The notes under the pieces are model-generated. The model did not search any database. It worked only from the letters and a program-made list of their open reading frames with translations, and was not told the origin of the DNA. This document shows positions 5,258-64,000 of a stretch of DNA of 64,000 bases, in pieces. Each line of letters begins with the position of its first letter. The first letter of the stretch is position 1. Location: NCBI RefSeq assembly GCF_028641065.1, contig NC_073398.1, positions 25,606,001 through 25,670,000 of the forward strand, in the 5' to 3' direction. This stretch comes from Leucoraja erinacea (Eukaryota). The translations under genes were made by a program, and so were the position numbers.

Positions 5258-6040
5258 ACAGAAAAGCTGGAGAAACTCAGCGGGTGCAGCAGCATCTATG
5301 GAGCGAAGGAAATAGGCAACGTTTCGGGCCCAAACCCTTCTTCAGACTGATCGGGGGTGGGGGTGAGTCGGGACAAGAAAGGGAAAAGGAGGAGTAGCCA
5401 GAAGGCTGGAGGGTGGGAGGAGATAGTAGGGGAGCTGAGGAAGGGGAGGAGACAGCAAGGACTAACAGAATTGGGAGAATTCGATGTTCATGCCCCGGGG
5501 GTGTAGACTCCCCAAACGGAATATGAGGTGCTGTTCCTCCAATTTCCGGTGCTGCTCGCTGTGGCCATGGAGGAGACCCAGGACAGAGAGGTCGGAGGCG
5601 GAGTGGGAGGGGGAGTTGAAGTGCTGAGCCACCGGGAGGTCAGCTTGGTTATTGCGGACCGAGCGGAGGTGTTCGGCGAAACGATCACCCAACCTCCGCT
5701 TGGTCTCACCGATATAGATCTGCTGGCATCTAGAGCAGCGGACGCAATAGATGAGGTTGGAAGAGATGCAGGTAAACCTCTGTCGCACCTGGAACGACTG
5801 CTTGGGTCCTTGAACGGAGTCGAGGGGGGAGGCAAAGGGACAAGTGTTGCATCTCCTGCGGCCGCAAGGGAAAGTGCCCGGGGAGGGGGTGGACCGAGAG
5901 GGAAGGGAAGAATTGACAAGGGAGTTATGGAGGGAGCGGTCTTTGCGGAAGGCAGATATGGGGGGAGATGGGAAGATGTGGCGAGTAGTGGGGTCACGTT
6001 GGAGGTGGCGAAACTGACGGAGGATTATTTTTTGTATGTG
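5258..6040 (-). mobile_element. Young 5'-truncated Penelope-like element with intact GIY-YIG endonuclease C-terminus
   Basis: ORF 5462..5788: NLIYCVRCSRCQQIYIGETKRRLGDRFAEH...VAQHFN...LEEQHLIFRLGSL. Terminal repeat at 5258-5350. Confidence 0.92.
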
Positions 6041-16400: not shown

Positions 16401-19400
16401 AGGATGGTGCTGCATGGTTCTAATCTCATTCCCAGTACCGCCGAGAATCATGGTTGGGTAGGTCAGTGGGGTACTATTAAAAACACCCCTACTGATGAGG
16501 TTGCCAAATTGTGTTGGCCAGATTGTTACATGATGTAGATTCCCTTTCACCCATGTGCTACCACAGTTGATATGTGCTACCACAGTAGTATTGTTAATTT
16601 ATAATCTAATAACCTGTTTAACATATTCCAGAGCAACATGACTTTAGGCCATGAAAAACACCCAACATTTCCAGGTAGTTATGCCCAGTGTTAGTAATAA
16701 TGATGCTTCCTGTGTATTCCATCTTCCTCCACAGCTGGAAATGGAATTGGTAACACACCATCCTAGTGCATAGCAATGCATATGTAGGACCATAGACTGG
16801 TTGCTGACAATGATAGGATTGGAGCAATGCCCAATGTTATCTTTCCACCATTTAGTTCCAATATGGCTTCTGTATGGCTTCATCATTCTATCGAAATGAT
16901 CACCATTAATTTTAAGAGCTCATATTTTGGCCCTCTGTAAATCTTTATAATGTAAGGGTTTGAATTATGTGGCTGGAAACCCATATTCCCAGTACCACCT
17001 GTTGCCAAAATTCTTGCTACCAGTCTGATGGATGGTTTATCCTCATGTCAATGATTTTGCTGTATGCCTTTATTAAGGTTGTAACCTCTGTTGGCAAAGT
17101 TACTGACATGAGGAACTGAGTTATTGGTGAACCCCAAATAATCCCTTTAGTTTGAAGGCTTTAATTTCGATTTAATTGGATGGATAATGAATCTTAGTTT
17201 CCAATAATTGTTAAGTGGCTGTTACCGTTTGTTCAGCCCGTCCTAAGTTCCCGCACAATTAGTATGTCATGCAAAGAAGCCATTACCATTGTGTGGCTGG
17301 TTGTTATATTTTGTAAATAACCTAGGTGCTAATGTAAACACATTAGGTAGTGCTCTATACTGCTAGAGCTGAGCCATCCAATTAGATAAAATAACGTCCG
17401 TGGTCACCTGTTATGGGTACTGAAAATAGTAAGCATCCTTTGAATCAATGCTTGCCATTTTCATTCTTAAAACGAATATACTTAACAATAGAAAAAAGGT
17501 TTCCGTTCTTAACGAATATATCGTATTATTTATTTCATTTATTTATTTTTAATATATGGTCCCTAGATAAGGGACATATCAGATATTTAAACTGATAAAA
17601 ACCCCAGATATTATGCTTGATCTTGGCCAAAAACCCGAGATCTGATCTAGGTTTGATGCGTCAAGCGCCATATCCTATTTTGTTAGGAAGGGAATGCGTA
17701 GATAATAATTCTTCCCTTACAATGCAGCTAAAACCCCTCCATTGCTGATGTCCAGTGTCTGTATCCCATATGACATATTTGGTAATTGGTGATAATGTCT
17801 GGATACGAGTAGATCGGCATCTGGTGTTCCATATCGTGTAGAAACCTCAGCAAATACTATAGCCCAATATCCATTTGGTGTTCTCCTCCAAATTCCTCTC
17901 TCGATATATCAGCTGGACTAGAAAATTATGTGTTGTAAAATTCTATTGTGTATCCCCGGATACTGTTTAAGATACGAGTGTCAAAAAATTATTTATTCGA
18001 TGTCTTCTCGCACCAACCTCCTTGCTTCCTTCTGGTTTTACTGTTTTCATCTGGATCCCCGAGGCCGTGTGTTGAGGGTGTACACATCTTCAGATATAGT
18101 GGTGATACCTTTGAGGATGATGTTTGGACGTTTAGATGAGCTCCAATTTGGCTTCATTGTCCAACTCCTTGACCTTCTAGATCGGTCACCTCCAAATAAA
18201 GATAATGCTAGGAGGTTTCGGGTTTACACAGGCCTGTGTCAATCCCGATTTGATGTAACCAGATTCATAAGTTGATTAGTTTAGTACATTCAGGGATTTA
18301 CAATCCCCAGTGGCAAGTGACCGCTATGGTGTCAGCTAATGTTTGCCCCTGCAGTAGAGAGAGAACATATGGTCTATGCTGGTTTCTAACCTGGTTTGTA
18401 GATCTTTCCCAGTTAGCTTTACTCACAGCTGTACTGTTGTTCCCCCTGAAACATAGACAGACATCCCATGTGACTTCCCAGATGGGAATGGAATTTGTCA
18501 GTAAATTTTTTGGACTGCTAAATCCTTCAGTCACAACATAAGTATTCCTGTATTTCTATCAGGAAAAGACCAATAATGCACTCTATGTACTTTGTGACTT
18601 AGAAAAAGCTTCACCTCATTATTATAGCTCTTACATCTGTTTACCTGTCCAGGGTTTGCCCTAGACTTGACCCCAGCACTCTTCTGACAAAAGAGTCTAC
18701 TGGAGGGAGAGAAGCATGATTATAGCCCTAAGAAAAGGTGCTGCTTCCTTCTCCCTAAGTCTGTCTTTTCCTCCAGCACTTCCCTATAATAGTGGAAGTG
18801 AGATACAGCCCTGTATAAGGTGCTGCTATGGGACTTACCCACTCGAGGATTTGCTCTTCTCTTTTTTGGACCTGCATCGCTGCAAACGCGGTATGTTCTC
18901 GCAGGTGCAGGTCCCGCAGTGTCTACGCGTCGCAGTGCTCACGGGCACTGAGTTCCTTGTAGTGCCGTTGGCCTGCGGTGCTCCACAGCGCGGTGTAGTG
19001 CTCACGGCACTGAGCCGCCCGTCTACCGTTTGCCTGCGGTGCTCCAACGCGGTTCAGTCCGCTCGGGGAGCTGGCCGCTCGCAACCGCAGGTAAGGTGGC
19101 TTAACGCGGTGCAGTGCTCCCCACTGTGCCGCTCCTTCCTTAATTGGGCCCGCAGTGCTCCAACGCGGTGCAAGTCCTCTTGGGGAACTGACCGCTCGCG
19201 ACGCAGGCCCAGCAGCTCCAACGCGTACCCCGTGCTCACGGGCACCGACCGCTCGCCGCTACCTCCAGTCTCCCAGCCCCACGGACCCATACAGCGCTCC
19301 TTACCCTGTAGGTCCCTGGGCTGTTTCCCGAGTCGTCAGACCGACGGCTCCGGAGTGCTCCACCGGCTGTCGGCGACCCGTACACCTGCTGGAGCTAAAG

Positions 19401-62800: not shown

Positions 62801-64000
62801 ATTTTACTTCGGAGTCACGTGAGTGATTCCGTGAAGAACCCAGCCCAGTGCGCAGGTGCGGCATTATCGCACAGCTGTGCAACAAGCGGCCAGCGGGAGT
62901 CGGGCGCTCCCGCAACCAAGGACGTGAGGTAAGTACTTACCTTAATCGGGCCTTGTGGTTTTTTGCTCCAGGGGGAGCAAAGCAGCAGAGGAAGCGGCCC
63001 CCGTTCGACTCCAGCGAAGGAGCCGATAGTGGAGGGGGATAGGCGCTAACGGGACCGCACACGCTGCGGACCGCTGACAGGGAGCTGCGCTGATGCCGGT
63101 CCGCTGAACAGCTGTTTGGTTAACAGCAGCGGACCGGAGGGAAATTTAAAAACCCGACCGGCAGCCCTGCAGACTCCTGACAAGGAGAATCGCCACCCGG
63201 GAACCGCTAGAATGCCGCCTGAAAAACGGCAGGCAGCCTCTAAATACAGGTAAGACAAAAATCTTACCAAAATTACAGGTTCTACAGGAACCAACTTCCT
63301 CCAACACTGGAACAGGCTGGAGACAGCAGTATGTCTGTCTCCCCAAGCCAGAGGAGGTCATGGAGTTCACCTCCAGGGAAAACGAGGGCCACTGGCTGAA
63401 TGCCAAGGGAGCTGACACTCCTACTCCAGTGTTATTGCACTAGCCATCTTCCTTGTTGAGGGATTGATACAACAATGGAGTTTGAGCTATGCCTCCTCCA
63501 ATTTATAGCACACCCTTTTGCTCCCTCTTTTGAGGCTAGCTAAGGAGGCCAGGGCTGGGCTGGCTTAAACGCTGGGCAGGCGGACGAGAACAGCAGTATG
63601 CCAGGGGAGCAGGATCAGGAAGAGCTACTGGGTGTCGTGGGCCACTACATGGCTCCTCCACGCGACCATCTTCCCAAACAAAGCCCTGCAGGAGTAGGCC
63701 TTTCTAGAGGCAAATCCGCAGGCAGCTGGGTCAGCAGACTCGCAGACAAGAGCTAAAAGCAGCGAACTTTGAAGCTCCTAACAGAGGGTCAAGATGTCAC
63801 CGCCTTTGCTCGTTTTTTCCACGGATCATACTCACCTGGCAGGCGAGACGCCATGATCACCAAGGTGGTTCTCCCAGGATGAGACTATCCCGTTGCACTA
63901 CGAGTGTGCTGACGCCTAAGATGTTCCCAAATTTCGGATACTCGACTGACATGGAACGAGCAGGACATCGCATCCAACACCCAGCTGGCAGCACCCCTCG
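62801..64000 (+). mobile_element. 5' part of a DIRS1-type element (runs off the window)
   Basis: Starts attttacttcggagtcacgtgagtgattccgtgaaga, matching the 5' terminus of the 14964-19692 element; decayed gag-like sequence follows. Confidence 0.85.
63828..63952 (+). ncRNA. U1 snRNA-derived segment (about nt 1-125, lacks Sm site and stem-loop IV) inside the DIRS element
   Basis: atactcacctggcaggcgagacgccatgatcaccaaggtggttctcccagg...ttgcact...tgtgctgac...cccaaat...actcgactg. Colinear with U1 atacttacctggcaggggagataccatgatcacgaaggtggttttcccagg...ttgcact...actcgactgcat. Confidence 0.92.

Follow-up and report, generated by a model that had tools for sequence, protein, structure and literature searches.

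Related DIRS lineages in this genome have acquired snRNA sequence in 12 independent insertions, as distinguished by their junctions (two of U1, seven of U2, two of U4 and one of U5; none of U6). The U1-like piece near the end of the window, by which we mean the whole 64,000-nucleotide stretch analysed here, descends from one of them. Ten of the 12 (U1 twice, U2 seven times, U4 once) are tail-less, and all ten lie in the sense orientation and start at snRNA nucleotide 1 (p 0.001 for 10/10). The probable explanation, in our view, is that the DIRS reverse transcriptase (RT) switched onto co-packaged Sm-class snRNAs. The features of the window copy are these:

62802..64000, forward strand: 5' part of a non-autonomous DIRS-type retrotransposon, recognised from siblings and from decayed pol and tyrosine recombinase (YR) sequences matched by tblastn with an intact relative.
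62802..62865, forward strand: left terminus, an inverted terminal repeat, from comparison with siblings.
62927..62942, no strand assigned: palindrome AGGTAAGTACTTACCT, a motif resembling a 5' splice site on both strands near the left end, read in the sequence.
63511..63660, forward strand: remains of gag ahead of the cargo, for which identity to ORF1 of the intact relative L276, over its residues 168-217, is 65%.
63827..63835, forward strand: 5' capture junction, where the empty site is CATACTAAC and the filled pristine site CATACTTAC, with microhomology to U1 nucleotides 1-8.
63828..63952, forward strand: decayed captured U1 snRNA, nucleotides 1 to about 127, from Rfam and comparison with host gene L047.
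63950..63952, forward strand: CAT joint of a secondary 106-nt deletion in which the Sm-site remnant and downstream gag were lost.
63977..64000, forward strand: start of a gag C-terminal remnant that runs past the window edge, matched to L276.

The Rfam U1 match covers 63828-63957 on the forward strand and scores 56.6 bits (E 4.7e-13), which does not reach the gathering score of 69.5. True U1 genes of the host (L045-L055) fall into several variants, and the piece is closest to L047, with 88% identity over 121 nt; in 125 nt there are 15 substitutions, including T6C and A65G, and a 2-nt gap. The 5' end ATACTCACCTG and the U1A loop GTTGCAC, both given in a preliminary description of this DNA, were found in the sequence as stated. 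The U1-70K loop GATCACCAAG is also there but is not the departure from the canonical form that it was taken for, since host U1 genes L047-L049 have this loop themselves. Likewise, the piece does end at GACTGACAT, but that end was made by the later 106-nt deletion and is not a capture breakpoint. The same description made an altered 5' splice-site recognition end the key feature of the piece. Because the closest host gene differs by 15 substitutions and a gap, T6C is one change among many in a decaying cargo; the altered 5' end is likely to be drift, and a U1 of altered specificity is not supported. The stems contain many non-standard pairs and the fold is weaker. The Sm site, stem-loop IV and the 3' box are all missing from the window form of the cargo, and stem IV is missing even from pristine copies. 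We found no PSE or DSE upstream of the piece, where the DNA is instead native gag, which is also present in U1-less copies and is unlike the upstream regions of host U1 genes; as described earlier, there is neither a target-site duplication (TSD) nor poly(A). The piece is likely to be a non-functional, decaying passenger.

The cargo sits about 1 kb inside its element. Siblings of the window element are 4.7-4.8 kb long (about 4.75 kb), with inverted termini, variable flanks and an internal complementary region, which was read directly in L032, L034 and L276 and which in intact siblings mirrors the first 40 nt or so of the left terminus. The first 64 nt or so of the window copy match the inverted 3' ends of siblings at 86-88%. 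Its own right end is missing: about 2.5 kb beyond the window edge, some 3.7 kb from its start, the copy gives way to the 5' part of a related DIRS family in inverted orientation (L031:4512-6143). Another locus, L037, has an upstream flank in common with the window copy at 99% and yet keeps a normal 3' end, a pattern that points to inversion, to recombination between elements or to a difference in assembly. Element flanks differ on both sides and show no TSD, with 5' ends that read A/TTTT across the boundary and 3' ends that mostly read CTTACT/ATT.

The intact relative L276, which has the same termini, matches the Pfam families RVT_1 (E 3.7e-19) and Phage_integrase (E 3.2e-7), and its 581-aa pol gave no Pfam match for RNase H or methyltransferase domains; Pfam matched none of four fragments taken from the window element itself. 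By tblastn, the window copy and its sibling L034 match the pol of L276 (E 4e-88 and 1e-77, respectively) and its YR (E 7e-20 and 1e-57), and the window family matches gag, pol and YR, all in broken frames. No intact long frame was present in any family copy examined, with or without U1, and therefore the parent element was likely to have been non-autonomous already before the U1 capture. Two further features of the family were observed. The motif GGTAAGT, which resembles a 5' splice site, accompanies 50 of 58 sampled DIRS end motifs, at a distance of about 20 nt from the element end (e.g. L032:6487-6497), and is mirrored in the internal complementary region. The window subfamily contains two short 3' tails of LINE/SINE type: the first (L032:3780-3863) takes most RNA reads, from unrelated transcripts, and the second (L032, about 5510-5610) is in sense and common to many copies.

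In this 2.19 Gb genome, whose repeats may be those of a cartilaginous fish, the 300 bp around the U1 piece had 1015 candidate matches; 38 of the 40 that were scored are full-length at 93-100%, and the other two are split by an extra segment. The C6 form of the U1 junction occurs in 380 exact copies on many contigs, while the canonical U1 16-mer has 38 exact copies genome-wide. Siblings share the U1 junction of the window, and no L1-type TSD accompanies it. A one-off processed pseudogene or an assembly artefact, for which only the Rfam score below the gathering cut-off speaks, is thus a negligible prospect; the sibling counts refute the former, and against the latter stand sequencing runs under two organism labels, whose reads cover the element, U1 bins included.

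At the native site, 29 of 30 loci have no U1 and the thirtieth carries a different host U1 variant. Pristine-like cargo copies (L060 and L063) contain U1 nucleotides 1-139, with L060 99% identical to L047, and their comparison with U1-less parents shows that U1 took the place of about 48 nt of gag without a TSD. The U1-less site begins ATACTAAC and U1 itself ATACTTAC, so that the insertion site resembles the U1 5' end. The Sm region reads AATTTGTGGTAGTGG in pristine siblings and ATTTGTG in longer siblings, and L067 and L069 have a cargo truncated at the Sm site. From the window form 106 nt between two CAT triplets are missing, as they are from all 30 of the 30 short forms, and a decayed long form has 167 exact marker matches, with U1 in 30/30 examined. 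C6 is present on the otherwise near-pristine U1 piece of L062, and to judge from the sequences it arose early. Decay was stepwise and comprised G17C, T6C, loss of stem pairs, erosion of the Sm site and the 106-nt deletion, with loss of the 5' end in some lineages (e.g. L264 and L282; three of seven U1-bearing elements in a position-based sample). A tree of 36 rows, with the junction region masked, places the U1-less copies and the product of a second U1 capture (type B) in one clade; the order of events was taken from sequence nesting rather than from this tree because its root is the midpoint on the long row L110. The type B element, L059, has lost 43 nt at a point about 70 nt upstream of the first site and holds U1 nucleotides 1-133 there instead. 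Its U1 is 99% identical to host gene L050 and 92% to L047, and the element is otherwise of nearly unchanged parent type.

Such success could mean that element or host gains from the cargo, either as a variant U1 reading GUGAGU donors or as a cis-element (Sm site, U1A and U1-70K loops) that would help the element RNA to be exported, stabilised or packaged and would thereby promote the spread of cargo-bearing lineages. C6 arose early and is present in 60/60 sampled young copies, and cargo-bearing lineages are abundant: 60 stretches chosen by position, representing 89 of the first 100 of 13,752 terminal-motif matches, yielded 11 elements with U1 or U2 pieces, all in sense. However, pristine and young copies diverge by 9-15% in the cargo, 7-10% in the nearby flanks and 5-7% in the rest of the element (Fisher p 0.001-0.17 for cargo against rest, from 15 non-independent pairs), and the folding energy of the cargo has weakened from -44.6 to -32.1 kcal/mol. 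A PSE, like the other signals named above, is missing from the window form, and lineages have gone on spreading after loss of the 5' end or the Sm site. We saw nothing to suggest constraint on the U1 cargo, which decays at least as fast as its surroundings; a useful cargo is very improbable, and we reject a functional variant U1 on divergence, structure and missing signals. One raw single-cell cDNA run (about 1% of it read, and blind to transcripts of snRNA size), two contig sets guessed to be RNA and one contig set of unrecorded kind, when aligned to a sibling, gave low depth over the U1 bins and no pile-up of starts or ends, a result that says little about a small RNA.

The 12 insertions, by locus, are as follows:

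U1, two events: A (the window lineage) and B (L059).
U2 full-length, two events: the L187 group, and L189.
U2 nucleotides 1-95: L197.
U2 nucleotides 1-91: L215.
U2 nucleotides 1-93: L392/L403/L415.
U2 nucleotides 1-90: L266/L381.
Fresh U2 nucleotides 1-96 over a decayed 1-90 at the same site (re-capture): the L199 group.
U4 full-length, tail-less: L321-L323.
U4 with a CR1 tail: L324, with the 8-nt TSD AAACAAGA.
U5 with a CR1 tail: the L217 group.

Seven events have a usable empty relative; in each, native sequence was lost (from about 4 to several hundred nt, the automated sizes being rough) and none has a TSD. Five of the seven empty sites start with AT, as the snRNAs do, against a background of 7.4%, in a post hoc comparison with empty relatives about 70-99% identical. 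In U1, the observed part of the history is the replacement of those 48 nt or so without a TSD, followed by spread to at least 380 copies, and the other nine independent tail-less captures, of U1, U2 and U4, repeat this pattern.

Sm-class snRNAs have a cytoplasmic phase. On the reading that we favour, they would enter the DIRS particle during their passage through the cytoplasm. During minus-strand synthesis the RT would jump to the 3' end of an snRNA, to an A-tailed end or to a single-stranded stretch near the Sm site, and would copy the snRNA back to nucleotide 1. The end of the cDNA would then re-anneal upstream on the element RNA by short homology, so that native sequence is skipped, and an intact relative with the same termini would mobilise the hybrid in trans. 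Template switching explains the sense orientation, the intact 5' ends, the TSD-free replacement, the microhomology and the re-capture at one site. Capture during DIRS replication was already proposed in the preliminary description. The DIRS setting, the sharing by siblings and the lack of an L1-type TSD are established, and the pattern named there as refuting it (siblings without the U1 segment, together with an L1-type TSD) is not the one observed; packaging and switching themselves are steps that we infer from patterns in genome sequence. There is retroviral precedent: precursors of snRNAs are taken from the cytoplasm into particles, with a preference for pre-U2 in MLV (PMC4378196), and template switching builds pieces of host RNA into retroviral genomes (PMC4997597).

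The principal alternative is that LINE/Tx1 machinery, or break repair patched with cDNA, put snRNA copies into DIRS DNA, either in the chromosome or in a circular intermediate, and that DIRS amplified those that fell in master copies. The LINE-type marks (TSD, A-rich or LINE tail) that are missing from the U1 capture of the window are present for U4 in L324 (both) and for U5 (tail). These two CR1-tailed insertions, one with its 8-nt TSD, indicate that DIRS copies do receive snRNA chimeras through LINE machinery, as is established for at least one of the pair. Single-copy CR1 insertions are found in DIRS copies too, short A linkers follow four of the tail-less cargos, and A-tailed, TSD-flanked retrocopies of U1 and U2 exist outside DIRS. 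Microhomology at the 5' end and target deletions also occur in LINE insertions. L1 makes 3'-truncated, tail-less snRNA copies that end in single-stranded stretches, but 70-100% of these have TSDs (PMC4476161), against 0/7 at the testable sites here. Six nested LINE pieces in 67 DIRS copies are split evenly between sense and antisense (three each), whereas the tail-less snRNAs are all in sense (Fisher 0.036, or 0.069 with the two tailed chimeras counted as LINE); amplification favours the detection of inserts and may select for sense cargo, a caveat on the all-sense count. The U1 pieces borne by DIRS end at nucleotides 133 and 139, unlike 19 U1 retrocopies outside DIRS, which end at nucleotides 141-158, and one lineage took up a fresh U2 over an old, decayed U2 at the same site.

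The census of snRNA classes also bears on this alternative. We assigned Rfam matches to DIRS by comparing both flanks with 36 position-sampled DIRS copies. By this test 6/42 U1, 5/11 U5 and 0/48 U6 matches lie inside DIRS, as do 31 of the 38 U2 matches fetched (of 47 Rfam matches), among them all five best-scoring full-length U2 matches (L187-L191), and 1/11 U4 matches, with three more U4 in a short element known by its termini. U6 is the commonest ordinary retrocopy, with roughly 40 that are A-tailed or joined to LINE/SINE sequence, and its absence from DIRS (Fisher p 0.0003-0.01, on rough hand counts) counts in favour of capture by the RT because insertion by LINEs would be expected to favour U6. 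This absence is not predicted by the MLV precedent, as MLV does package U6 (PMC4378196). DIRS elements, of which there are some 7,000-10,000 copies, make up about 1.4-2.2% of the genome but hold 12 of about 42 independent Sm-class insertions, by hand count from match lists; among barely amplified events the enrichment is modest (4/34 in DIRS; p 0.002-0.05, depending on the DIRS fraction used). Taken with the points above, insertion by LINEs or by repair is unlikely, though it is the most credible of the rivals to template switching by the DIRS RT.

A search for exact matches to the U2 core gave 249; of 70 examined in listed order, with 10 that were already among the Rfam matches left out, 66 are in DIRS and four in a repeat headed by U2. 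At the Rfam gathering threshold, at which decayed pieces would escape, as those of U1 did, the 60 stretches gave U2 only (four matches) and no tRNA, 7SL, 5S or snoRNA. None of the U2 matches examined is a U2 gene with gene-like flanks, and true U2 arrays may be collapsed or unscored. Three identical copies of U2 1-150 (L192-L194:1500-1655) share a non-DIRS context on small contigs. The window itself contains the 5' half of a U2 (17537-17646, reverse strand; Rfam 58.1 bits); its end is A-rich, its flanks are not from DIRS, and it is likely to be an ordinary truncated retrocopy.

Other dispersed repeats, at locus positions of about 1200-1700, consist of a shared body with a U1 5' head (L144, L149, L151, L154, L170) or a U2 5' head (L373, L405, L417, L419), and some hold both U1 and U2 pieces; they look like SINEU-type repeats, here outside crocodilians. 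A further set of loci (L165, L145, L148, L150, L168; L350, L352, L355, L358) contains two kinds of broken U1: genes or 5' parts interrupted by non-LTR-like sequence, and 3' parts from nucleotides 35-40 behind poly(A). We take these loci to reflect, possibly, a Tx1-like element that targets U1 genes.

The window lineage shares with DIRS-1-like YR retrotransposons (PMC5633606) the inverted termini, an internal complementary region that corresponds to both ends and the gag, RT, YR order, but it is non-autonomous, with broken frames in the copies examined, and carries internal snRNA cargo. With the packaging of non-coding RNA and patch repair in retroviruses, including 7SL recombinants (PMC4997597, PMC4378196), it shares a host small RNA in an RT-made genome, likely through template switching with microhomology; the DIRS inserts differ in being fixed in the germ line, recurrent (ten events), present in hundreds of copies, in a YR element and without U6. 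Copies of snRNA associated with LTR elements are on record (Giles 2004, as cited in PMC4476161). In snRNA-LINE chimeras and 3'-truncated snRNA pseudogenes the full 5' end, the sense orientation and 3' truncation in single-stranded regions are also seen (PMC4476161); there, however, TSDs and a LINE or A tail accompany the copies, U6 is the favoured snRNA and the snRNA part lies at the 5' end of the insertion, whereas the ten tail-less DIRS cargos are internal and replace native sequence. The SINEU elements of crocodilians likewise amplify U1 and U2 5' parts in a mobile element, with repeated additions by template switch, but their heads are terminal and moved by non-LTR elements, whereas the window cargo is internal to DIRS; the text of that paper (PMC4494074) contains neither 'DIRS' nor 'shark'.

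Host structural RNA is found within a retroelement in another case as well. Cassandra is a non-autonomous retroelement with 5S rRNA in its LTRs, and that 5S sequence is conserved and has been ascribed a promoter role. The U1 cargo of the window lineage, by contrast, decays, and snRNA genes do not have internal promoters. We found no report of snRNA cargo in DIRS in the full-text literature, a search to which most subscription journals and Repbase were outside scope, and Repbase may already list such elements. The cargo in DIRS may be what is new here; host-RNA patching, snRNA-LINE chimeras, SINEU and DIRS structure were already known.

Tethering by U1 alone was considered as a cause of capture and is weakened by the more frequent capture of U2. 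A bolder proposal is that DIRS particles of this lineage selectively recruit Sm-class snRNAs (U1, U2, U4 and U5 but not U6), perhaps via the splice-site-like motif at their ends, and use them for priming or strand transfer in reverse transcription. We think this improbable; were it true, the 12 captures would be fossil by-products of a step that is missing from accounts of DIRS replication.

Canonical U1 5' ends number 38 against 380 altered ones, and most of the examined Rfam U2 matches lie in DIRS; what a count of snRNA genes or a U1/U2 probe picks up in this genome would therefore be mostly transposons. The model of DIRS replication is still not fully proven (PMC5633606), and the recurrent, class-selective uptake of snRNA by this lineage may offer a handle on it. 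Captures that are in sense, begin at nucleotide 1 and come from Sm-class snRNAs only would record what adjoins the DIRS reverse transcriptase and how it jumps. Capture by template switching predicts cytoplasmic assembly of DIRS particles, snRNA within Gag particles and jumps at capped 5' ends.
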